Made by a program: the position numbers and the translations under genes. Shown here piece by piece: positions 1,212 to 40,251 of a stretch of DNA of 44,179 nucleotides. The stretch is from a phage. The notes below the pieces were generated by a model. It ran no database searches and had not been told where the DNA came from. It worked only from the letters and a program-made list of their open reading frames with translations. The stretch lies in assembly GCA_032279465.1 (NCBI GenBank), contig GCA_032279465.1_4357.1; one strand, given 5' to 3'. Each line of letters starts with the position of its first letter. Position 1 is the stretch's first letter.

Positions 1212-1505
1212 TTATTTATGACGCCAGATGTATTGTCGTCTCTGCGGTTTAGTCGGAATATCATCGTATCCGAGCGATTTCCAGTAATTAAATAACCGAT
1301 TAGCGATTGCCGCGCGTTCCTGTGTTTTAAACTCTCCTAGATTCACGGCCTTTCCGTTCTGGAATCCACAGGCGCGGATAGCTTTACGCCTGGCCTGAAT
1401 CTCGGGGTACAGCGCGTTACGGCGGCGCTTGTGTATACGTGTCTTCGCTCTCGGTGACAGCGGCGCAAGGCCGCTTCGTTTCAGGATGTCAGTTGCAAGA
1501 GACAT
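1212..1505 (-). CDS. Hypothetical basic protein
   Basis: ORF track 1212..1550; likely start at internal ATG 1505 overlapping the upstream stop; Arg/Lys-rich. Confidence 0.4.
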   Translation of the reverse strand: MSLATDILKRSGLAPLSPRAKTRIHKRRRNALYPEIQARRKAIRACGFQNGKAVNLGEFKTQERAAIANRLFNYWKSLGYDDIPTKPQRRQYIWRHK

Positions 1506-3559: not shown

Positions 3560-3774
3560 GGGTGGGCGTTAGCCCACCCCAGCGGAGTGAAGTACTCTCT
3601 ATCTTGCTTACGGCAACTATAGAAACTTTTAATTATCAGTGACTTGGATATTTAGGCGGGATTAACAATAGACTTTGACCCTTCCGAAAGCGTCAGCGGA
3701 ACTACACTCAAGTGCCTAATGGCACGCGTTGCGTTCCCTGCCGCTCCGCGGTCGCTTGCGATATCTCACAAGCT
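3560..3774 (-). ncRNA. Structured leader RNA, copy A (putative antitermination/attenuator element)
   Basis: Non-coding; core 3665-3790 is a paralog of 35955-36078; predicted start near 3774 from promoter 3781-3809; 5' hairpin 3754-3773; covarying stem 3698-3702/3733-3737 enclosing hairpin 3712-3725; ends at GC hairpin 3560-3579. Confidence 0.45.
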
Positions 3775-3780
3775 CAGTGA

Positions 3781-3809
3781 AGCTTAGCATATTTTCAAGT
3801 AAAAGTCAA
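3781..3809 (-). promoter_or_regulatory. Promoter of leader RNA copy A (TTGACT-N17-TGcTAAGCT)
   Basis: Minus-strand -35 TTGACT (3804-3809), 17-nt spacer, extended -10 TGcTAAGCT (3781-3789); same architecture as 36069-36097. Confidence 0.5.
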
Positions 3810-3916: not shown

Positions 3917-4099
3917 ATGCAGCATTACATGACACAGAATGAAGTGGCTGAACGTATCGGGGTGACCCGTCAAACAATTAATAATTGGTTGCGCAGCGGT
4001 AAATTCCCTGATTGCTGTATTAAGGTTATGGGTCGCCGTTTACCAGGAACATTTGACCGTAATAAAGTTGAAGCATGGATTAAGGAGAACGTGAAATGA
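3917..4099 (+). CDS. Small HTH DNA-binding protein (AlpA/excisionase-like)
   Basis: ORF track 3845..4099; ATG 3917 behind AGGAG; helix-turn-helix segment NEVAERIGVTRQTINNWLRSGKFP. Confidence 0.6.
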   Translation: MQHYMTQNEVAERIGVTRQTINNWLRSGKFPDCCIKVMGRRLPGTFDRNKVEAWIKENVK

Positions 4100-4505: not shown

Positions 4506-6754
4506 ATATTGTTTTTGCAACGCTGCGCAACACATTCGATAAAAACCCTGTAGCGCGTGAGATGCCTCTCGAGCAGTTTGTGGAGTATGTCTGCGATACA
4601 TCGAAGCGTTTATCCGTGGATCCGTCGTGGTCTAAGGAAGAGTACGACGCTGCCAAGATTAAGCAGAAAGCTATTGCGCCTGTTGGGGGTCGCCGTAAAA
4701 ACGCTATCCTGGAAGACAGTGTGGTTAAGTTCGATTTTGACCATCTCAACCGTACTCAGTACCGCGACCTTGCCCGCAAATTCAAGAACGCACCGTTCTT
4801 CAATATTCTGCATACAACGGCATCGCATCAGCATGTGTGTAAAAACGGTGATTACGCCTTCCGCGTTCTGGTTCCGGCTCGCACGCCGTTTAACTCTAAC
4901 GACGCGTGGATGGTCCAACGGGCTATTTGTGCAGAGTTAGAAATAGATGAAGCCTTGCGTGACCACTGCACGGAAGACGGCAACCGCCTTATCTATCTGC
5001 CACATAGAGAGTCAAAGATAACGGTTACAGAAGGGCGTGTTATCCGTGCCGAGCGGTACATCAAGAAAGCCGAAGAGATGGGGTTGAGTAAACGTGAAGT
5101 TAAGACACTTGCCGCCGATGAGTATGGGCTTAATGCTGATATAGCGCATTTCTGCGAAGCCGAGCTTGGCCTTGACGCTTTATCTTCCGGGCGCGGGTAC
5201 GAAGTCCCATGCCCTAACGAACATCTGCATACAGGCAAAGGCTCCACAAGCATCATGCTTGATGGTAAAGAAGTGCGCTTTGTGTGCCAGCATACAAACA
5301 ACGGCGCTTGCACCGAGCTTAACCGCCGACAGCATTTGGCCCTGCGTATGTGCGGCCTGCCAGACGAGCTTAACGTAGACAAGCAACCTATCAGTATTAA
5401 CAGCATTCGTGCGGCTCTGCCTGATTTACCGGATGAAGAGATTGAAGAACTGCACCGCACAGAGAACGAGGAGCCTGTAACTTGCACGCTGGAAGACCTT
5501 GAAGAAGAGGACGAGTTACCAGAACCGGTAAAGGCTGATTTCGTCGTTGAGGGGTACATGCCGTCGGATTGTATCTGGGATATTGTCGGGGAATCCGGCA
5601 CGTACAAATCATTCTATACGCTGGGGATGATGTACCTGAGCGCCGCCGGGTACCGGTTTGCGGGGGCTGACACCCAACGTTGCCACCATTTCTATATTGA
5701 CGGCGAGGGTGGTGCGACTACACGAACACGTATTGATGCACTCGCGGCTAAATATGGCGAGGAAGGTAAAGATTATGTACATGTCATCGATATGGGCGAA
5801 ATACTCGCTACGCATGGTGATAAAAAAATTCCAGCTCTAATCCGCAGGATGCGCGAAACCGCAGGGGATGAACCTATTGGCATGGTTGCCTTCGACACCC
5901 TTAACCAGACGCTGGCCCTGACGATTGATAAGTTCGACGAGAACAGTTCATCAACGGCAATCGGTATGGGTAAAGTTATCGCCATCCTGAAAGAAGTGCG
6001 CGATGCAACTAAAGCCGCTGTCGGTGTCGTTCACCATACTCCGAAGGGCGGAAAGAAAGCCCGCGGCAGTGGAGCATTGTATGCGGGTGTCGACGTGGAA
6101 CTTACAATCGAACGCGCTACCGGCCGTCAGATAAACGTATACCACTCTAAATTTAAGCACGGTCCGCAACAGAAGACGGTTGGCATGGTACTGGAGTCTG
6201 TACAGTTCCGTGAAGCACCGCCGCCGAAAGAGTACCGCGCGGTTGAGTTCCTCGGTAGCACAGAGGAATACGGCACAATAGTAAACCTCGACCTGCCTGA
6301 GCCGCACAAGGCGCTTGTATTGATGCCGTGGGGCTTCGAGCCATTCAAGACCGACGAGGAGAAAGAGAGGGAAGAAGGGTTAACTAACGAAGGTAAACAA
6401 AATGTACGTAAAACCATAGAGAACGCCGTCAACAGTTCCGAGGCCACGATACTCGCGGCGTTTGAACTGGCGGAGGGGACCTACAACGGCAACGAAGGCA
6501 TCACAGTCGCCGCGGCGAATAAGCTCGCACAGTCAGACCCCAACGCAAAGGCGTTTAACTCCAAAGAAGCCATAGAACGCGGGAAGATTAAGAAAATGGT
6601 TGAGGCTGGGTATCTTGTCCCGGGTACTGACGAAAACAATCAGATAATCCCAGGCCGTTACAGACTGAACACCATGATAACAGATAACAAGATTCCGAAG
6701 ACAATATACGAGCCGAATGAAATGCTGACAGTGACCGAGGAGGATTTGGAATGA
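4502..6754 (+). CDS. DNA primase/helicase (N-terminal primase-like and zinc-binding region, C-terminal RecA-like ATPase)
   Basis: 750 aa; Walker A GESGTYKS, ...VVHHTPKGGKKARGSGALYAGVDVELTIER typical of RepA/DnaB-like phage helicases; Cys/His cluster CPNEHLH...CQHTNNGAC. Confidence 0.65.
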   Translation: MNIVFATLRNTFDKNPVAREMPLEQFVEYVCDTSKRLSVDPSWSKEEYDAAKIKQKAIAPVGGRRKNAILEDSVVKFDFDHLNRTQYRDLARKFKNAPFFNILHTTASHQHVCKNGDYAFRVLVPARTPFNSNDAWMVQRAICAELEIDEALRDHCTEDGNRLIYLPHRESKITVTEGRVIRAERYIKKAEEMGLSKREVKTLAADEYGLNADIAHFCEAELGLDALSSGRGYEVPCPNEHLHTGKGSTSIMLDGKEVRFVCQHTNNGACTELNRRQHLALRMCGLPDELNVDKQPISINSIRAALPDLPDEEIEELHRTENEEPVTCTLEDLEEEDELPEPVKADFVVEGYMPSDCIWDIVGESGTYKSFYTLGMMYLSAAGYRFAGADTQRCHHFYIDGEGGATTRTRIDALAAKYGEEGKDYVHVIDMGEILATHGDKKIPALIRRMRETAGDEPIGMVAFDTLNQTLALTIDKFDENSSSTAIGMGKVIAILKEVRDATKAAVGVVHHTPKGGKKARGSGALYAGVDVELTIERATGRQINVYHSKFKHGPQQKTVGMVLESVQFREAPPPKEYRAVEFLGSTEEYGTIVNLDLPEPHKALVLMPWGFEPFKTDEEKEREEGLTNEGKQNVRKTIENAVNSSEATILAAFELAEGTYNGNEGITVAAANKLAQSDPNAKAFNSKEAIERGKIKKMVEAGYLVPGTDENNQIIPGRYRLNTMITDNKIPKTIYEPNEMLTVTEEDLE

Positions 6755-7089: not shown

Positions 7090-7294
7090 CACCTAACGCC
7101 AGCCACTTGGCGTCTACTTCCAGAACTTCCGCCAGTTTGAACAGCGTTGCCGGGCGGACGTCCTGAGTTACTCCAAGTGCCAGCTGGTTAATCGCGCCCT
7201 GGGAAACGCCGGTCAGGGCCGCCAAACGGCGCTGGGAGATGCCGAGTTCTTTACGGCGTTGTTCTACACGGGTGCCTAGTTCAGATGGTTGCAT
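7079..7294 (-). CDS. XRE-family (Cro/CI-like) HTH transcriptional regulator
   Basis: 71 aa; LGISQRRLAALTGVSQGAINQL helix-turn-helix; AAGGAG Shine-Dalgarno; lone minus-strand gene diverging from promoters carrying two inverted-repeat motifs. Confidence 0.7.
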   Translation of the reverse strand: MQPSELGTRVEQRRKELGISQRRLAALTGVSQGAINQLALGVTQDVRPATLFKLAEVLEVDAKWLALGEGA

Positions 7295-7314
7295 GTCAGT
7301 TACTCCTTAGTCAG

Positions 7315-7387
7315 TTGATATGTGAATAGTACCATATTAATTATTTTAGAAAAGCCCATTGACATGTGAATAGTTCGCTATTATAGT
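7315..7387 (+). promoter_or_regulatory. Tandem sigma70-like promoters (type 2) with two AATAG-N4-(C/A)TATT inverted repeats
   Basis: P1 TTGATA (7315-7320)-N17-TAATTA; P2 TTGACA (7359-7364)-N17-TATAGT (7382-7387); inverted repeats 7325-7338 and 7369-7382; divergent from XRE gene. Confidence 0.55.
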
Positions 7388-7415
7388 TAGCCCATACCAA
7401 ACGAGAGGGGCAGAT

Positions 7416-7643
7416 ATGAACACAATCACTGGGGCCATAGCTAAAGGTTTTCGAGCAATTTTCGGCGCTCCGCAAGAAGTGTGCACAAAACATAAATTTG
7501 TACTTTCTTGCGTAGTAGGGGATGAGTTTGATGGGTTCGATAAACTTGTTGTCTGTGACCATTGCGGGCAAGAAGCTATTCAACACTCAAACGGTAAATT
7601 TGAACTAATAGACGATAGCCTTACTGAAGGCGACGGTGAGTAA
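7416..7643 (+). CDS. Hypothetical protein with CxxC motif
   Basis: 75 aa; GAGAGGGG Shine-Dalgarno; VCDHCGQE. Confidence 0.4.
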   Translation: MNTITGAIAKGFRAIFGAPQEVCTKHKFVLSCVVGDEFDGFDKLVVCDHCGQEAIQHSNGKFELIDDSLTEGDGE

Positions 7644-10622: not shown

Positions 10623-10642
10623 TATCTGAATCAATTTAACTA

Positions 10643-10667
10643 AGGCCCTTCATTGGGCCTTTTTACT
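10643..10667 (+). terminator. Rho-independent terminator
   Basis: Stem AGGCCC/GGGCCT with loop TTCATT followed by TTTTACT. Confidence 0.55.
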
Positions 10668-16283: not shown

Positions 16284-16314
16284 AAAAGGCCCCGTTTGGG
16301 GCCTTAGTTTATTT
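16284..16314. terminator. Bidirectional Rho-independent terminator between convergent modules
   Basis: Stem AAGGCCCC/GGGGCCTT with loop GTTT, A-tract upstream and T-tract downstream; between Toprim gene and tailspike gene. Confidence 0.65.
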
Positions 16315-26113: not shown

Positions 26114-27244
26114 ATGGCCCGGAAGAAAATAACCGACGAACAGTTGCAGGAAGAATTGAACGCCGGTATGAAGAATGTAGATATCGCCCGTAAATACGGC
26201 ATCTCAGACCGCGTAATTCGTATCCGTAAAGCGAAGCTGGCTAAGAAAGGCGTGGGCCACGGGCGCGACGTTAGCCACCTTGTGCCAGACGGCTACAAGA
26301 TTAAAGGAACGTCGTCACTTGTGGACGAGTTCGGCAACACTAAGTTGCAATGGGTTAAGACTGATACCGACGCCGAACGTCAGGTTGAATTGATGGAAAC
26401 CGTAATAGAGGGCATGAAGTCAGAGATTACGCCCGTTGCGCCTGTTAAAGCGGCGCGCGCCAAACGTGACGACAAGCTACTCAATCTTTACACGGTATCT
26501 GATTTCCATCTCGGTATGCTGGCATGGGCCGATGAGAGCGGCGACGACTGGGGCATGAAGATTGCAGAAGACCTGTTCTCTCGGTGGTTCGACGCGGCGT
26601 TTCAGAAAGCACCGGATGCAGGAACAGGAGTTATTAACCTGCTTGGGGACTTCGCACACTTCGATAGTCTTGATGCCGTTACCCCCGAGTCACGCCATGT
26701 ATTAGATGCGGATACTCGCTATCAGAAACTGGTACGTTACATGATTCGTATGGTCCGCCGTGTTGTTGATATGGCGCTGGTTAAGCATCACACAGTAAAA
26801 CTTTTAATCGTTCAAGGTAACCACGACCCTGTTGGCTCCGTATGGCTTGCCGAAATGTTCACGGTTTTATACTCAAACGACAGCCGAGTGATTGTTGATA
26901 CGTCGCCGGATGTTTACAAGATGGTGCAACACGGCAAAACGACGCTGTTCTTCCATCACGGGCATAAAGCACGATTCGACGCTATCGAACCGGTTATGAT
27001 TGCCAAGTTCCGTAAAGCGTTCGGCGAGAGTGTTTACAGCTACGCCCACGTAGGCCATCTGCACCACCAGAAGATTGTAGAAAGCCGTAACATGATTGTT
27101 GGGCAACACCGCACCTTAGCGGCTAAAGACGCCTACGCCTCTCGCGGCGGATGGATGTCGGGCCGCAGTGCAAATGTAATTACTTATAGCGCCGAATATG
27201 GCGAGGTCGCACGTTTAACTATTTCACCGGAGATGCTGGGATGA
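26114..27244 (+). CDS. Calcineurin-like metallophosphoesterase with N-terminal HTH
   Basis: 376 aa; metallophosphatase motifs DFHLG, GDFAHFD, GNHD, HHGH, GHLHH; N-terminal DIARKYGISDRVIRIRK helix-turn-helix. Confidence 0.6.
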   Translation: MARKKITDEQLQEELNAGMKNVDIARKYGISDRVIRIRKAKLAKKGVGHGRDVSHLVPDGYKIKGTSSLVDEFGNTKLQWVKTDTDAERQVELMETVIEGMKSEITPVAPVKAARAKRDDKLLNLYTVSDFHLGMLAWADESGDDWGMKIAEDLFSRWFDAAFQKAPDAGTGVINLLGDFAHFDSLDAVTPESRHVLDADTRYQKLVRYMIRMVRRVVDMALVKHHTVKLLIVQGNHDPVGSVWLAEMFTVLYSNDSRVIVDTSPDVYKMVQHGKTTLFFHHGHKARFDAIEPVMIAKFRKAFGESVYSYAHVGHLHHQKIVESRNMIVGQHRTLAAKDAYASRGGWMSGRSANVITYSAEYGEVARLTISPEMLG

Positions 27245-27729
27245 AAGATATTGTAATTTTCGATTTAGACGGGACATTGGCTGACGGTACCCATCGCTTA
27301 CACCTGTTACCAAAAGATAACTACGGAGAAACGTGGGCGTGGAAGCCATTTAACATGGCCTGCAAAGATGACGCTCCGATATACGACAATATCCATTTGT
27401 GTAGCGTACTGTGGCATTCCGGACTTACTATAATTATCCTTACCGGGCGAAGTGATGACGCTGAGGAGGAGACTCGCGAATGGTTACGAGAGAATAACGT
27501 TAGGTTTGACACGCTAATCATGCGCGGCAAACACGACAACAGAAAAGACATCGTAATTAAAGAAGAGGTGTTGCGTGCTTTCGGACTGGAAAGAATCTTG
27601 TGTGCGTTCGACGACTCTCCAGCGGTAATAAAGCATTTCCGTGACCTCGGCATAACCGCACACGCAGTTACCGAATACGACTGTAACGGGAACTCTACAC
27701 ACTTAAAACCACACGGGAGCGATAAATAA
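27241..27729 (+). CDS. HAD-superfamily phosphatase/nucleotidase
   Basis: 162 aa; HAD motif I FDLDGTL. Confidence 0.6.
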   Translation: MKDIVIFDLDGTLADGTHRLHLLPKDNYGETWAWKPFNMACKDDAPIYDNIHLCSVLWHSGLTIIILTGRSDDAEEETREWLRENNVRFDTLIMRGKHDNRKDIVIKEEVLRAFGLERILCAFDDSPAVIKHFRDLGITAHAVTEYDCNGNSTHLKPHGSDK

Positions 27730-28283
27730 TGGCTAAGGTAATTATTCTTAATGGCCCTGCGGGTTGCGGGAAAGACACGCTTGCTATGGCGCTGGTAGAA
27801 ATGGGCTTTGCGAAAGGAACTACCAGTTTCAAGAATCCAATGTTCAATATTGCTTTGGCAGCGTTAGGCCAGGATGCTTACCACGAATTTCTCGACGGCT
27901 ACGACGACCGGGCGCGGAAAGAAAAACCCGAGGGTTTTCTTAATGGGTTGTCCCGCCGCCGGTTAATGATTGCCATTTCTGAGCAATTCATTAAACCGGT
28001 ATTCGGCGATGATTATTTCGGTAAGTATCTTGCTGAAAACTTGCCTGACGGCGACGAAGTTTTTGTAGTGTCCGATGGTGGATTCGCCAGTGAAGTTGCC
28101 CCTATCGTCGCCGCGGGGCATGACGTGCGAATCGTCCGCCTCCATCGTGACGGCTATACGTTCATCCGCGATAGCCGTGGCTATCTGTACGATGTTAGTG
28201 GTGTAAAAGATTACGACACCTACATCATACCGGGTGACGTTAAATCGAACGTTATAGACATTGCTTTAAAATTAGGTTTGTAA
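27729..28283 (+). CDS. Deoxynucleoside monophosphate kinase (T4 gp1-like)
   Basis: 184 aa; P-loop ILNGPAGCGKDT at N-terminus. Confidence 0.6.
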   Translation: MAKVIILNGPAGCGKDTLAMALVEMGFAKGTTSFKNPMFNIALAALGQDAYHEFLDGYDDRARKEKPEGFLNGLSRRRLMIAISEQFIKPVFGDDYFGKYLAENLPDGDEVFVVSDGGFASEVAPIVAAGHDVRIVRLHRDGYTFIRDSRGYLYDVSGVKDYDTYIIPGDVKSNVIDIALKLGL

Positions 28284-28287
28284 GAAA

Positions 28288-28315
28288 AAGGCCCCGAAAG
28301 GGGCCTTAGTTTTAT
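28288..28315. terminator. Bidirectional Rho-independent terminator
   Basis: Stem AAGGCCCC/GGGGCCTT with loop GAAA, then TAGTTTTAT; between dNMP kinase and convergent major tail gene. Confidence 0.65.
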
Positions 28316-35266: not shown

Positions 35267-35348
35267 AGTCAGTATGTCCCCTGGACGTTGGAATCCGGGC
35301 CTCCCGGATTTACATGTCAAGAATAAATTATTCCAACATGCAAGGCAA

Positions 35349-35612
35349 CTATTCCAGAATATTCCTCACGTAATCCTGCAACATGAACACTTTCAGCCTC
35401 AGTTGCCGTACACATTCGGCGTTCTGAACGTCGATAGCCAAATCCTCATCGGCGTCGCTACTTGGCAGCGCCAGCTTGCACGGCGGCTGCATCATCGTCG
35501 TATCCGGGGATGGAATTGGCGTTGGCGACGGCGCGGGACTTGAACTGCACGCGCTCAGGGTCAAAAGTGCACACGCTGCGACCAGGCGTTCTAATGTACT
35601 TAACGACTTCAC
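35349..35612 (-). CDS. o-spanin (Rz1-like outer-membrane lipoprotein)
   Basis: Signal peptide with lipobox LSAC then Pro-rich SSSPAPSPTPIPSPD; starts inside Rz in another frame and extends past its stop. Confidence 0.55.
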   Translation of the reverse strand: MKSLSTLERLVAACALLTLSACSSSPAPSPTPIPSPDTTMMQPPCKLALPSSDADEDLAIDVQNAECVRQLRLKVFMLQDYVRNILE

Positions 35613-35844
35613 GGGTAATCACCTCTGATTTCGTCTTGCCTTCGTTGTCAGCGGCGGCTGCCTTCGATTCGTCCTGCTGCTGCCGTTGTGTTTTCTTAGC
35701 TAACTCAGCCTGTGCTTTTTGCTGTTGCTGCGAAACGAGATTAGCGCGGCCTTCGTGCCAGCCGCTGCGGTACTGATAAATGCCGTGTGTGTAAGCCTGG
35801 ATGATGAAACATGCTCCTGCTACGACGGTTGCTTTAAGATTCAT
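35458..35844 (-). CDS. i-spanin (Rz-like)
   Basis: 128 aa; N-terminal TM helix, Gln/Ala-rich coiled coil; overlapping Rz1-like ORF. Confidence 0.6.
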   Translation of the reverse strand: MNLKATVVAGACFIIQAYTHGIYQYRSGWHEGRANLVSQQQQKAQAELAKKTQRQQQDESKAAAADNEGKTKSEVITREVVKYIRTPGRSVCTFDPERVQFKSRAVANANSIPGYDDDAAAVQAGAAK

Positions 35845-35861
35845 GTTTCTCCTTTCTCGAT

Positions 35862-36062
35862 AAGTAAAGCCCCGCCTTAAAGCGGGGCGCTAGTCCTTAT
35901 CATTTAAACATAGAAACGGCGTAATCTAAGTAAACCTGTTACTTTTTACACAAGCAATAGAGTATGGCCCTTCCGAACGCGTCAGCGTAACTACACTCAG
36001 GACTTACGTCCCGCTCCGTTACCTGCCCGCGCCGCGGTCGCTTGTTCATACTTCACAAGCTC
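35862..36062 (-). ncRNA. Structured leader RNA, copy B (putative antitermination/attenuator element) ending in intrinsic terminator
   Basis: Paralog of 3665-3790; predicted start near 36062; 5' hairpin 36040-36060; covarying stem 35987-35991/36018-36022 enclosing hairpin 36000-36011; terminator stem 35869-35875/35882-35888 plus U-tract, about 25 nt upstream of Rz start. Confidence 0.45.
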
Positions 36063-36068
36063 AGGTGG

Positions 36069-36097
36069 AGCTTAGCACATTTTTAGTGAAAAGTCAA
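36069..36097 (-). promoter_or_regulatory. Promoter of leader RNA copy B (TTGACT-N17-TGcTAAGCT)
   Basis: Minus-strand -35 36092-36097, 17-nt spacer, extended -10 36069-36077; identical elements to copy A. Confidence 0.5.
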
Positions 36098-36111
36098 CTA
36101 TTCGAATAGTT
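36096..36111. promoter_or_regulatory. Perfect 16-bp palindrome AACTATTCGAATAGTT overlapping -35 of leader-RNA promoter
   Basis: Same GAATAG/CTATTC half-sites as the promoter inverted repeat, here with zero spacer; adjacent inverted repeat TATTCCA...TGGAATA. Confidence 0.4.
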
Positions 36112-36163
36112 TATTCCAACATTTACAATTCGGTGGAATAACTGGAATACGTAAATAAATAGT

Positions 36164-36423: not shown

Positions 36424-36429
36424 AAACTA

Positions 36430-36455
36430 AAGCCCCGTAAGGGGCCTTTTATCAT
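36430..36455. terminator. Rho-independent terminator
   Basis: Stem GCCCC/GGGGC with loop GTAA, followed by CTTTTATC. Confidence 0.55.
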
Positions 36456-36913: not shown

Positions 36914-37956
36914 TAATCCCCTTTCAGATAATCAGCAACACGTTTATCGAGTTCCGCCATCTGCTTAAGCGTAAGCGGATTCCCGAAACCATCTACAGAT
37001 TTTACGCGAAACTCTTCCGGCGATATACCGCTGTTACGGAAAATCTTACCACGAACAGGACCGAGCGCCTGGTCCTGAAACCATGCTGGTTGTTGTTTCA
37101 GGAACTCGTAATAGGTGGTGTCTGCGCTTACCTGAGTACCGCCGTCCGCACCCTTAGCCGCACGTTTTGCGCCTTTATCAAGGAAGTCGAACTCTGAACT
37201 GATTACCGGTGCAGTGGTACTTCGGCAATTAGGATGGGCTGGTGGCATCGGACCTTTACCGATTTCCCACGTCATTCCGTCTCTGGCCCTGCAAATCGTG
37301 CTGGTACGGCTGTCCAGCGTCGACATCCACTCGTATTTCTCGATGATGTCGTCGTTCTGGCGGTACGTCTCGTTACGTGCTTCGTTGGACACGTGGGACA
37401 GCGCAGTACGGATTACTGTAGCCGCGTATTTCTCCGATACGTCAGCCAGCCCGCCTTTACCGACTACTTCCGTAACAATCTGCCGTGTTGTCTTACCCTG
37501 AACAAAGCCCATCTTAACGCCGGTTACAAGACGTGCTACTTCCGTTTCACCCCAGCCCGACATCAGCTTGGTGAAATCAACGGGCTTGTCGCTCAATGAT
37601 AATGGTTGAAACTCGGCAGCGGCCCATACCTGTTCTGCGGTAGGCGTAACAAATTCCGCGTCTACGTTGGCGGTCAGTGTCTTTACGTTCCACTCAGCCT
37701 CATACGCCGCCAGTTCCTTAAGGTCTTCTGTCAGCTTTGTCTGCCAGTCGCCCGTAAGCCCCACCAGTGCTTCTTCAAGGTCGCGTAACAATTTATTCAG
37801 TCGGGCAGTGCTTCGCCCGTCGTCACCGAATAACAGCACCTGCCGTTTTATTTCGTCCCGCATCTCCTGAATGAACGGTGCTAGGTCTTTCACTTCACCA
37901 GATGCGGTGCGTTGCAGCCAAATCTGGTGGCTGATTAGTGATGTCAGTAAGCTCAT
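36913..37956 (-). CDS. Head morphogenesis protein (SPP1 gp7 / Mu F-like)
   Basis: 347 aa; HPNCRS motif typical of the family; follows portal gene. Confidence 0.65.
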   Translation of the reverse strand: MSLLTSLISHQIWLQRTASGEVKDLAPFIQEMRDEIKRQVLLFGDDGRSTARLNKLLRDLEEALVGLTGDWQTKLTEDLKELAAYEAEWNVKTLTANVDAEFVTPTAEQVWAAAEFQPLSLSDKPVDFTKLMSGWGETEVARLVTGVKMGFVQGKTTRQIVTEVVGKGGLADVSEKYAATVIRTALSHVSNEARNETYRQNDDIIEKYEWMSTLDSRTSTICRARDGMTWEIGKGPMPPAHPNCRSTTAPVISSEFDFLDKGAKRAAKGADGGTQVSADTTYYEFLKQQPAWFQDQALGPVRGKIFRNSGISPEEFRVKSVDGFGNPLTLKQMAELDKRVADYLKGD

Positions 37957-38756: not shown

Positions 38757-38783
38757 AAGGCCCCTAGCGGGGCCTTTCTATTT
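38757..38783. terminator. Bidirectional Rho-independent terminator
   Basis: Stem AGGCCCC/GGGGCCT with loop TAGC, then TTCTATTT; between KilA-N and convergent portal gene. Confidence 0.6.
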
Positions 38784-40251
38784 ACTCCTGTTGTTGCGCG
38801 GACTGCGGAATTTCTCCTGCTACCTGAGCAACCGCACCCAACGGCAGCGGTGCGTCCCCAATAGCGTTCTGAATGTCCCCATCGGTCCAGTCGGTTACGC
38901 CAGCCTTACGCAACGCGGCGTAGTAAGCAGTAGCTGGTAGCAGGCCTGCGTTAATGTCCGCCATCCACTGAGCGCGGTCCTGAGCTGTCATAGGTTGCAG
39001 GAAGAATTCCATATTCAGCTTGAACTCAATCTCAGTATCTTCACTAAGCCCAAGCATACCCGCTACCCAGCGCAATGCATCGGTATACGCCATACTTACG
39101 TTACGTGCGATTGTCGCCATAACAGACGTATCCGCGCCACGTTGCAGGCGGGCGGATTCGGCGGTGATTTGCTGCGTCGGGGTGATAAGCTGCGCACCAA
39201 TCTGAATGGCCTGATTCTCTTTATCCAGCATATTCTGTTTGGCGAGGTTGTTCTCTCCTGCCTGAACAAGAAATGCATTGCCGCCGTAACCGATGTTATG
39301 GCCCGAACGCGACCCCATGCGCACGCCGTGAGGGTTGGCTTCTTTCCACTGTTCCATGCTCATGTTCTCGCCAGGGGCGATGAACAGAGTAGGCTGGCCT
39401 ACAACGAAGCTGGATTCCTCGTTGTCCGCGCTGTTGCGGAAATGCCCGATATTAAGCTCAGCTAACGGTAGCAAAGGTGCATCATCAATGGTCGCATCGT
39501 TGTTGCTTGCCCCAATGAACGTGAACGGGATTTTGCCCCGTAACTGTTCGCCAAGTTCCGGGAATATTTCGATTACATCATCCTGAGCGCCACCTTCGGC
39601 ATCGAAGCGATAGATTCGCTGGCGGTAGCGCCCGTCAATCAAATCGAGAACGCGGTATTGTTCACCGAACTTTGTTTCGAACTCTGCACTTGGTTCTGAG
39701 TATTCCCACACCTCACGTAACACGACCATCGTCACACGGTTCACTGAGCCGATGCGGGTCAGTCGCCAGTTGATGATGTTCTCAGCAGTGTAGAATGCAA
39801 TGACCGGGTTTAGTAACCCCGCGTTCTGTTCGGCTGCCGTTGCCGCGGCTGTCTCCGGGGCGTCCACCAGCAACCCGCCACGACCCACCGAATCAATCTC
39901 CATTAGCGTATCCTGTGCGTGCTGCCACAGCCCGACACCAGAACCGTCCGCGTTACGTAACAGGTACTCCAGTTCAGGCGGTATAATCTGCTCGGGGTCT
40001 TTGCGCATGACACTGCCGACCATCCCCGCCAGCGTTCTCTTGGTGAAGTTGTAACAGATAGCGCCGTTCTCGTATTCTTCCTGGCGCTGTGCCGCGTAGG
40101 TCGGGTCCGGCTCATTCTTCCCAACGTTGCGCAGATAGCGGATAAGGTCGCCTTCCAGCGCGTGGCGCACCTTCTGCCATTTATCGAAGTGGTGCAGCCA
40201 TTCCCGGTGTTTTGTCTTAACACCCTGATTCTGACCGTTCATAGTTAACAT
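38782..40251 (-). CDS. Portal protein
   Basis: 489 aa directly downstream of large terminase. Confidence 0.7.
   Translation of the reverse strand: MLTMNGQNQGVKTKHREWLHHFDKWQKVRHALEGDLIRYLRNVGKNEPDPTYAAQRQEEYENGAICYNFTKRTLAGMVGSVMRKDPEQIIPPELEYLLRNADGSGVGLWQHAQDTLMEIDSVGRGGLLVDAPETAAATAAEQNAGLLNPVIAFYTAENIINWRLTRIGSVNRVTMVVLREVWEYSEPSAEFETKFGEQYRVLDLIDGRYRQRIYRFDAEGGAQDDVIEIFPELGEQLRGKIPFTFIGASNNDATIDDAPLLPLAELNIGHFRNSADNEESSFVVGQPTLFIAPGENMSMEQWKEANPHGVRMGSRSGHNIGYGGNAFLVQAGENNLAKQNMLDKENQAIQIGAQLITPTQQITAESARLQRGADTSVMATIARNVSMAYTDALRWVAGMLGLSEDTEIEFKLNMEFFLQPMTAQDRAQWMADINAGLLPATAYYAALRKAGVTDWTDGDIQNAIGDAPLPLGAVAQVAGEIPQSAQQQE

Follow-up and report, generated by a model that had tools for sequence, protein, structure and literature searches.

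The DNA considered here lies just upstream of the spanin genes Rz and Rz1 in contig GCA_032279465.1_4357.1 (GenBank assembly GCA_032279465.1). The whole stretch of 44,179 nucleotides, which we call the window, is a nearly complete Kagunavirus genome (subfamily Guernseyvirinae). At the element region, it shares 97% identity with the BASEL phages Bas70-76, NTEC3, and their relatives. We took gene order and annotation from two annotated relatives, Bas73 and Jersey. The minus strand is one long direction of transcription: small early genes, holins and endolysin, and nin-like genes come first, then terminase, portal, head morphogenesis, and a Hoc-like gene, then the element, and then Rz/Rz1, scaffold, capsid, connector, and tail genes. 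(The replication genes run in the opposite direction, starting from a divergent control region near 3.85 kb.) The initial annotation of this DNA, made from the letters alone, described the element as a promoter, a structured leader RNA, and a terminator, reported a second copy (copy A) elsewhere in the window, and proposed that the two copies gate the late and lysis operons. We find that the leader is a structured RNA of a new and well-supported family. The hairpin that follows it would gate at most Rz and Rz1. The parts of the element (copy B), in the order of transcription, are these:

36069 to 36097, minus strand: promoter P_B (read directly; kept in copy A; annotated as a promoter in the relative OM272052)
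36040 to 36060, minus strand: hairpin P1, GCUUGU-GAAGUAUGA-ACAAGC, at the 5' end of the transcript (RNAalifold)
35973 to 36037, minus strand: P2, a long irregular hairpin (RNAalifold and covariation test)
35955 to 35972, minus strand: single-stranded tail AAGGGCCAUACUCUAUUG (alignments)
35889 to 35954, minus strand: AU-rich linker, partly conserved between genera (CUUAGAUUACGCCGU and AUGUUUA; alignment)
35860 to 35888, minus strand: hairpin T_B, with stem GCCCCGCU-UUAA-GGCGGGGC at 35888-35869 and tail UUUACUUAUC (consensus scan)
35349 to 35844, minus strand: spanin genes Rz (35458-35844) and overlapping Rz1 (35349-35612) (open reading frames; annotation in relatives)

The core of the RNA is about 110 nt long (36060-35955, minus strand), forms two hairpins, and starts at about +3 of the predicted transcript in every class. 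We collected homologues from phage collections and from IMG/VR, and these fall into five Kagunavirus-type classes (B, A, C, D, and subtypes) and one divergent Jersey type. The fold was predicted by RNAalifold, and a covariance model (R1) was built on that structure. The model has exactly two matches in the window, at 146.9 and 102 bits. The weaker one is copy A, at 3784-3666, which confirms that a second copy exists; the two copies have the promoter and about 115 nt of transcript in common. In Jersey there is one match (36.5 bits), upstream of Rz. Standard pairs fill 96.8% of the pair cells across 42 distinct homologues, versus 30-44% with slid partners, and double-sided changes occur in 12 of the 25 pairs of the core; none of 500 shuffles reached the observed values. 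The z-scores of the fold are -2.2, -3.1, and -2.8. The covariance model and the compensatory pairs thus bear out the structured core that had been placed downstream of the promoter, and confirm that the RNA is real and represents a new family.

The two hairpins differ in support, with P1 less well supported than P2 in the pairing test. (P1 reads GCUUGUG-AGAUAU-CGCAAGC in copy A and UACGCU-UUC-AGCGUA in Jersey.) The conserved base of P2 pairs CCG-C-GG-N-GCG with CGC-N'-UU-CGG, leaving a bulged C and two G-U pairs, and the N/N' pair is C-G in 19 cases, U-A in 17, and A-U in 4. Above the base are internal loops GG/A and GGAG/AGUGUA, and the purine-rich asymmetric loop is conserved across classes. 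The capped apical stem (36013-35998) is variable: its sequence is wholly different between classes, yet it is paired in each. Double changes were seen in nine pairs of P2 and the apical stem. In the tail, GGAAGG and UAUUG are nearly invariant in both Kagunavirus-type and Jersey-type copies, and GGAAGGG...UAUUG is conserved regardless of class. In the modelled fold, the base of P2 (bulged C, tandem G-U, and invariant G-C) together with the purine-rich loop looks like a platform for binding a protein.

Could the conserved sequence instead encode a small protein? Copy B does contain an ATG-initiated open reading frame of 36 codons, from 36049, and GenBank records list a "hypothetical protein" here of 36-38 amino acids in the Kagunavirus type and 63 amino acids in Jersey. 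The frames annotated over the RNA lie at 35940-36049 in the window, at 1556-1672 in locus L001, at 7265-7456 in Jersey (L058), and at 5304-5414 in Bas73 (L194). Nevertheless, a coding function is extremely unlikely. The 36-codon frame lacks a Shine-Dalgarno sequence and its ATG (+14) falls within the loop of P1; an ATG is missing from copy A; the classes are separated by frame-shifting indels of 1, 2, and 4 nt; the Jersey frame begins upstream of the -35 box; and substitutions in the core are compensatory for pairing rather than patterned by codons. The annotated proteins are probably mis-annotations. We also considered a mini-frame or start codon at the conserved UAUUG and rejected it, as it is broken in some variants.

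The RNA is nearly universal in two genera and seems to be confined to them. The Kagunavirus-type leader is present in 181 phage records, at 95-99% identity, and the Jersey type is present in 269 records. Since about 460 records have a capsid protein that is at least 80% identical, nearly all of Kagunavirus and Jerseyvirus must carry the RNA. In sister lineages with the same gene order, the covariance model had no match near Rz or scaffold, and contigs of these lineages were missing from both of our pattern scans of the whole collection. In one of them (locus L238), Rz begins about 80 nt after the upstream gene, with no cassette between. The absence of the RNA from lineages with the same genome plan argues that it is an accessory cassette and not a core late switch. 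Judging from these comparisons, the cassette is an addition specific to Kagunavirus and Jerseyvirus. (Another lineage without the RNA, locus L246, has repeated TTGCGAG motifs upstream of Rz at 820-1180, and a 39-bp stretch there, extending over the start of the Rz frame, is duplicated in tandem.)

Outside these phages we found little. Rfam 15 gave no match at the gathering threshold in the window, Bas73, or Jersey, and a permissive search of the element region gave only chance-level matches (E>1). Searching 5,426 E. coli genomes gave no match to the RNA, and thus no sign of a homologue in the host, of mimicry, or of a copy in a prophage. A metagenome scan with a degenerate pattern of the core returned nearly all of its matches by chance, in G+C-rich soil contigs, and no new classes; the true matches were few and all Kagunavirus-like. 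Within the phage, a search for antisense targets gave only 11-13-mers at chance level. In the literature we found no description of the RNA. The sole paper with Kagunavirus RNA-seq is gene-centric (PMC12645636), and its time course, on phage vB_Eco_K1B4, is public (BioProject PRJNA939978; PRJCA028359).

Kagunavirus and Jerseyvirus are among the most often isolated phages of E. coli and Salmonella, and they are widely proposed for therapy and for biocontrol in food. The RNA is present in almost every one of these phages, where a tiny "hypothetical protein" has often been annotated in its place by mistake. As a new family it is clean and covaries well, and it stands at a regulatory position.

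In every class, and in both of the places where it occurs (slot B, upstream of Rz, and slot A, where copy A lies), the core has a promoter attached and a GC-rich hairpin 70-101 nt after it. In copy B, promoter P_B has the -35 box TTGACT at 36097-36092, a 17-nt spacer, and the -10 box TAAGCT at 36074-36069, which a preceding TG makes an extended -10. The predicted start is G36062. The promoter had been placed correctly. It is conserved in both copies and in Jersey (as TTGACT-17-TACGCT), and the record of the relative OM272052 independently annotates P_B as a promoter and the T_B hairpin as a terminator. P_B scored under the 9/12 threshold of our consensus scan because its -10 box matches the consensus at 3 of 6 positions. 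This unusual kind of -10 box, TAAGNT or TACGCT with a perfect or near-perfect -35 box, is found at all of the promoters that drive non-coding stretches (36069-36074 and 3781-3786 in the window; 7298-7303 and about 38884-38889 in Jersey, L058; and about 37063-37068 in Bas73, L194). It differs from the TATAGT or TACTAT of the operator-bearing promoters described below.

T_B was the top terminator-like site of the consensus scan. Its stem has 8 bp, of which 7 are G-C pairs (-15.8 kcal/mol), and its loop is UUAA. Variants of the stem are compensatory (GCCCUGC/GCAGGGC, and GCCCGGC/GCCGGGC in Jersey). The first 8 bases of the tail include 5 U in the Kagunavirus type (UUUACUUAU) and 3 in Jersey (UUAGCGUAU); the hairpins in slot A have no U tract. 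We read T_B, from these sequence features, as a putative leaky intrinsic terminator. The ATG of Rz is at 35844, 24 nt past the stem. All of the coordinates first given, including those of the stem, the start of Rz, and the palindrome described below, proved right on direct reading, and the hairpin abuts the ribosome-binding site of Rz: in slot B of both genera, the Shine-Dalgarno sequence is within 10-14 nt of the hairpin, with no promoter between. That there is no space there for another promoter had been pointed out, and we see it in both the Kagunavirus type and Jersey. There is a weak promoter-like site in the linker (TTTACT-16-TATGTT, 35934-35907), which OM272052 annotates as "Host promoter2". 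We rejected this internal promoter, as it is not conserved in Jersey and is upstream of T_B anyway.

We propose, with a probability of roughly 40%, that the element is an accessory cassette of promoter, RNA, and leaky terminator, which makes an RNA of about 200 nt and whose read-through serves as the leader of the spanin genes. The product of the cassette would be RNA, not protein. A strong sigma70 promoter (P_B) would transcribe the core of about 110 nt, the AU-rich linker, and the GC-rich hairpin, which would act as a leaky terminator; in slot B the cassette would be an insertion with the head-decoration gene on one side and the spanin genes on the other. The majority of P_B transcripts would end at the hairpin, or be trimmed back to it, as the RNA of about 200 nt, and those that read through would carry Rz and Rz1, with the cassette as their 5' leader. 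The hairpin would thereby attenuate spanin expression, and capsid and tail transcription would start 0.5 kb downstream from its own promoter. As a working guess, the P2 platform might set the share of transcription from P_B that passes the hairpin, acting on the RNA polymerase that made it. Here we infer termination and read-through at the hairpin, the species of about 200 nt, and any protein partner.

In the longer RNA, the 5' end might pair with ten bases beside the ribosome-binding site of Rz. The downstream strand of this helix is:

35856 to 35865, minus strand: 3' strand of a long-range helix, ACUU-AU-CGAG, just 5' of the Rz Shine-Dalgarno sequence (proposed)

Its partner would be +4 to +13 of the transcript (CUUG at 36059-36056 and AAGU at 36053-36050), as predicted by RNAalifold on slot-B leaders of both genera. 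The positions are 99.2% paired, versus 34-60% when slid. When the Kagunavirus type is compared with the Jersey type, two pairs have double changes and three have single, compatible ones. The helix is part of the minimum free energy fold of the leader in the window; in Jersey, one half is in the minimum free energy fold and the other half is in the centroid. It cannot coexist with P1, and it requires RNA that has read through the hairpin. We grade this modelled helix as a lead because only two lineages bear on it and both strands are almost invariant within each. If it is real, then selection acts on the read-through transcript, and the cassette is a true leader of the spanin mRNA.

This arrangement might also suggest a riboswitch-type attenuator, in which the core senses a ligand or protein and T_B is the expression platform for Rz/Rz1. 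The order is classical (sensor, linker, terminator, then Shine-Dalgarno sequence and AUG within 24 nt), and nucleotides of the junction and internal loops are conserved. But there is no conserved antiterminator helix over T_B, and the long-range helix would form only after the terminator had been passed. Also, the linker is poorly conserved, with 66-100 nt between core and hairpin; the slot-A copies lack a proper terminator; and there is no Rfam match. We consider this explanation very improbable.

What T_B can gate depends on the next promoter. Rz and Rz1 (about 0.5 kb) are the only genes between T_B and this one:

35292 to 35348, minus strand: promoter and 5' hairpin of the scaffold/capsid operon (conservation and context)

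This sigma70-type promoter is between Rz1 and the scaffold gene. It has the -35 box TTGCCT (35348-35343), a 17-nt spacer with GGAATAATT, and the -10 box TATTCT (35325-35320), and is followed by a 5' hairpin, AAUCCGGG-AGG-CCCGGAUU (35310-35292), and then by the ribosome-binding site of the scaffold gene. Both the promoter and the hairpin, which has compensatory changes, are present in Jersey and in relatives from IMG/VR whose scaffold proteins are 56-81% identical (for example at 7990-8060 in L058, 2110-2180 in L238, and about 2110-2190 in L249). The consensus in all lineages examined is TTGC[C/A]T, a 17-nt spacer, and TAT[T/A][C/T]T. In two lineages, what comes before the promoter is a gene on the opposite strand with a bidirectional terminator, so there it must fire on its own. 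An independent capsid promoter is thus predicted from conservation and context, and 35348-35320 is very likely the real promoter of the capsid operon. With a scaffold promoter of its own downstream, T_B would gate at most Rz and Rz1, and not the capsid and tail genes.

This overturns the proposal that the head and tail genes are reached only by read-through of T_B. (The terminase, portal, and head-morphogenesis genes, from terminase to Hoc, are in any case upstream of the element, and have promoter-like sites of their own.) The broader proposal, that antitermination or attenuation gates the late and lysis operons, survives in part: it is possible at the hairpin for Rz/Rz1 alone, but the late operon has its own promoter and copy A does not stand before a gate to lysis. 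The transcription map of Kagunavirus and Jerseyvirus is corrected accordingly: the capsid operon would have its own conserved promoter, apparently co-regulated with P_B via shared GGAATA sites (see below).

The scaffold leader also starts with a conserved hairpin, which suggests that 5' hairpins are general in this group of phages and raises the question of whether the element is simply for processing or stability of the mRNA. P2 would be a site for RNase III, or the 5' domain would shield the transcript against decay that depends on the 5' end. The RNA is strictly at the 5' end of the transcript; P2 is an interrupted helix of about 24 bp with an asymmetric internal loop, like the RNase III sites of T7; and the 5' end would be sequestered in the long-range helix. 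However, this would leave the invariant helix sequence, the conserved internal-loop bases, and the size of the element unexplained, and RNase III sites need no linkage to a promoter. We view it as improbable.

Upstream of P_B are two DNA elements:

36096 to 36111, no strand assigned: perfect 16-bp palindrome AACTATTCGAATAGTT, which overlaps the first two bases of the -35 box (read directly)
36104 to 36149, minus strand: cluster of GGAATA/TATTCC hexamers (TATTCC-AGT-TATTCC ... GGAATA-AAC-TATTC), a candidate binding site for a regulator

The initial annotation took the palindrome as a sign of additional control by a protein. DNA elements upstream of the -35 box do suggest such control, but the palindrome is specific to the Kagunavirus type (it is kept in nearly all slot-B copies of that type and is absent from Jersey), and the element shared across genera is the hexamer cluster. 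By our arithmetic, about 0.7 perfect 16-bp palindromes are expected by chance in 44 kb, versus 1 seen, so the palindrome carries weight only because of its conservation in the Kagunavirus type. At least three of the hexamers occur within 70 bp at only two sites in the window: 36104-36149, which is conserved in all Kagunavirus-type copies, and 35329-35365, which overlaps the scaffold promoter. Both clusters are conserved in Jersey; the promoter of copy A (P_A) has none. The shared clusters suggest that a single DNA-binding regulator may control both P_B and the scaffold promoter.

A different palindrome, AATAG-N4-CTATT, occurs at 7 exact sites in the window (2364, 3471, 7369, 9909, 13971, 25831, and 36180), versus 0.01 expected. 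All are in promoters, either in the spacer or in the -10 region, and as a set they look like operators for one phage regulator. We recognised two DNA-binding candidates, a helix-turn-helix protein (3917-4099) and a basic protein of 97 amino acids (1212-1505). The latter is a conserved protein of 97-98 amino acids that begins with MSLATDILK (1212-1505, minus strand, in the window; gp60 of Jersey, L058 40681-40977) and is encoded just upstream of the holin genes. It has a very basic middle stretch and a weak AP2-like signature at the C terminus, and it belongs to a PHROG of unknown function. We regard this protein as a candidate DNA-binding regulator.

A few other features of the late region are worth recording. 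Near-identical bidirectional terminators, AAGGCCCC-N4-GGGGCCTT, are at 10642-10661, 16286-16305, 28288-28307, 36429-36448, and 38757-38776. The three in the late region (28288, 36429, and 38757) are each at a junction between late minus-strand genes and an opposite-strand gene. These opposite-strand neighbours are a 217-amino-acid gene that matches the Jersey amidase, a 67-amino-acid gene, and an exonuclease/kinase block. The block is a plus-strand insert (26114-28283). Its DNA repair exonuclease is assigned by position, following the annotation of Bas73 and Jersey, while PHROG matches identify a polynucleotide kinase and a deoxynucleoside monophosphate kinase. We also considered a replication origin at 36 kb and rejected it: the cumulative GC skew turns only at the strand-switch points near 3.8 and 16.3 kb.

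The second copy of the cassette consists of:

3666 to 3809, minus strand: copy A, with promoter TTGACT (3809-3804), 17-nt spacer, and TAAGCT (3786-3781), and core at 3784-3666
3560 to 3580, minus strand: hairpin after copy A, GGGUGGGC-UAAC-GCCCACCC, with no U tract

Copy A was supposed to gate the lysis operon. This does not fit: its hairpin lacks a U tract, and two further promoter-like sites, at about 3500-3465 and about 2397-2355, each with AATAG-N4-CTATT, precede the run of small genes that ends in the holin. (The promoter directly after the slot-A hairpin is TTGCAC-17-TACTAT, at 3500-3472, and is of the family with AATAG-N4-CTATT.) Nor is the two-copy arrangement general. About 54 of the 181 Kagunavirus-type records (roughly 30%) have copy A, in several divergent classes, and the Jersey-type records have a single copy and none in slot A. 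Phages without copy A have in slot A an unrelated non-coding stretch of about 300 nt (37030-37340 in Bas73, L194; 38860-39150 in Jersey, L058). These stretches are mutually conserved and have their own promoter (TTGACA-17-TAAGGT or TAAGTT) and a terminal hairpin; they have no match in Rfam and, in Jersey, none to model R1. In IMG/VR, one contig has a class-D core in slot B (L042 2210-2441) and a class-A core in slot A (L043 9587-9705). As the class-D core is otherwise found in slot A, cores appear to be exchanged between the slots by recombination.

The main rival explanation is that the cassette is a stand-alone "RNA moron". Its one functional product would be the RNA of about 200 nt, acting in trans to sequester some protein of the host or phage (a decoy or sponge), possibly against host defences, with the read-through into Rz being incidental. 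We consider this possible, if somewhat unlikely. In its favour, the layout is that of an autonomous unit of promoter, RNA gene, and hairpin in two slots, and the genes downstream of slot A have their own promoter. This explanation is also consistent with the different non-coding unit of about 300 nt in slot A of phages without copy A; with an optional second copy that diversifies quickly (classes A, C, C', D, and D'); with the exchange of the cassette between slots (the class-D core in slot B of L042); with its dispensability in sister lineages; and with a core that keeps its sequence, in contrast to the freely varying apical stem and loops. Against this, the 5' end covaries with the segment after the hairpin, beside the ribosome-binding site of Rz, which implies selection on the read-through RNA, and Rz in slot B has no other promoter. 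In addition, the hairpins of slot A and Jersey lack U tracts, and with no above-chance complementarity to phage transcripts and no similarity to E. coli, antisense action or mimicry is unsupported.

Several points weigh against our preferred explanation, the leaky cassette that doubles as spanin leader. First, the transcript's start site and 3' end are predicted, as is the fraction that reads through. Second, the U tract is imperfect in the Kagunavirus type, poor in Jersey, and lacking after copy A, so "terminator" may misdescribe some copies, and there may be no discrete short RNA. Third, RNAalifold on the slot-B leaders gave no alternative pairing between core and hairpin (by hand, we found partial G+C-rich complementarity in some classes only), and hence there is no sequence-level mechanism by which the core would influence termination. 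Fourth, the long-range helix comes from two lineages, each with almost invariant strands. Finally, a plain 5' hairpin would suffice to protect an mRNA, and an autonomous RNA gene would need no covariation with the Rz leader; no single explanation would fit every feature.

The initial annotation likened the element to the put RNAs of phage HK022 and to the Q system of lambda, with a put-like or Q/N-dependent processive antiterminator rendering the polymerase that starts at P_B and P_A resistant to terminators, and thus able to traverse the late and lysis operons. The layout of promoter, leader of about 200 nt, terminator, and genes does resemble lambda PR'-tR' and HK022 PL-putL; like putL, the RNA begins where transcription does, and it is made up of two stem-loops that contain internal loops; a repeated -10-like hexamer recalls the sigma-dependent pausing at putL and PR'; and strong intrinsic terminators (33497-33476 and 28307-28288) lie further along the same strand. 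But the capsid and tail operon has its own conserved promoter, about 70% of Kagunavirus-type genomes and all Jersey-type genomes lack copy A, the sister lineages lack the RNA, and copy A faces no incoming upstream transcription that would have to be told apart. With the negative searches for put homology and for a protein partner described next, we think that processive antitermination is quite unlikely.

For put, we located putL in HK022 from the residue numbering of PMC9378689. Model R1 had no match at E<=1 in the HK022 immunity region that contains putL. Local alignment to putL gave p = 0.09 for copy B, 0.005 for copy A, and 0.13 for Jersey, and the aligned segment is the 5' strand of P2 here versus stem II and the apical hairpin in putL. 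We therefore rejected membership in the put family, given the lack of a covariance match and a weak local similarity between parts that are not structurally equivalent. (Rfam also gave no match in the HK022 immunity region, but it has no put model, so its silence is uninformative on this point.) For a protein partner, we compared 30 small or unknown proteins to PHROGs, and seven of them to Pfam, and found no member of a Q, N, or other antiterminator family, although divergent or novel ones could escape. No antiterminator is annotated in Bas73 or Jersey. The proposed kinship with the put and Q systems thus finds no backing in either comparison. For N/nut, CUCUAUUG matches boxA at about half of its positions, by reading. 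As a boxB, the P1 loop is not constant, either between the two copies of one phage or between the Kagunavirus and Jersey types. The sole arginine-rich small protein (1212-1505) is weakly AP2-like, and its basic stretch is not conserved in Jersey. Resemblances to boxA, ops, K-turns, T-loops, and CsrA sites were checked by eye, and none was convincing.

A further idea, which we consider rather unlikely, is that the P1/P2 core is a new class of protein-binding phage RNA, unrelated to put, that either acts on the RNA polymerase that made it or serves as an abundant decoy for a host factor. If it acts on RNA polymerase, altering the response to the hairpin and to later terminators, then it would be only the second type of self-acting antiterminator RNA known in phages. 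If it is a decoy, then it might neutralise a protein of defence or RNA decay; the optional and fast-diversifying second copy would reflect an arms race; and the cassette would be a protein-free accessory "moron".

How does the cassette compare with known systems? Like HK022 put, it has an RNA at or near a sigma70 start, with two stem-loops that contain bulges and non-canonical pairs; there are up to two copies per genome, and terminators follow. Unlike put (about 70 nt), the core is about 110 nt and the second copy is optional, there is only 0.5 kb downstream before an independent promoter, and the phage is virulent and not lambdoid. The put RNAs work in cis without any phage protein, rendering RNA polymerase resistant to terminators, and mutations in the beta' zinc-binding domain block them. 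By this analogy, a put-like way of working would still be conceivable, but it loses its main rationale because the long downstream operon has its own promoter.

Like lambda PR'-qut-tR', the element has a strong promoter, a leader of about 200 nt, a putative intrinsic terminator, lysis-related genes, and a -10-like hexamer early in the transcript. (After the -10 box, the hexamer is repeated, as TAAGCT..TGAGCT in the Kagunavirus type and TACGCT..TACGCT in Jersey. These hexamers also serve as the 5' side of P1, and at position 2 TGAGCT has G instead of A.) In contrast to the Q system, only the spanin genes would depend on it here; the holin, endolysin, terminase, and capsid genes are elsewhere or have their own promoters. 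Also, the leader here is a conserved and covarying RNA structure, and the lambda PR' leader is not known to be one.

The order of a structured 5' domain, a terminator hairpin, and a ribosome-binding site is that of attenuators and riboswitch leaders. RNAalifold on full slot-B leaders returned no mutually exclusive antiterminator pairing. With the RNase III hairpins of the T7 type, the element shares a long hairpin split by an asymmetric internal loop and several related copies per genome; it differs in always being fused to a promoter at the 5' end of a transcript, and cleavage here is hypothetical. The CI RNA of P4 and the C4 RNA of P1/P7 are small structured RNAs from the 5' part of the operon that they precede. 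Unlike these, the RNA described here has no complementarity to downstream targets beyond chance, and the window has no Rfam match to C4 RNA, for which Rfam has a model.

Phage morons are independent units of promoter, gene, and terminator that are inserted between phage genes. Like them, the cassette has its own promoter and hairpin, is between conserved genes, is absent from sister lineages, and occupies two alternative slots. Unlike them, its payload is a structured RNA and not a protein, and its read-through has seemingly been co-opted as a leader for the spanin genes.

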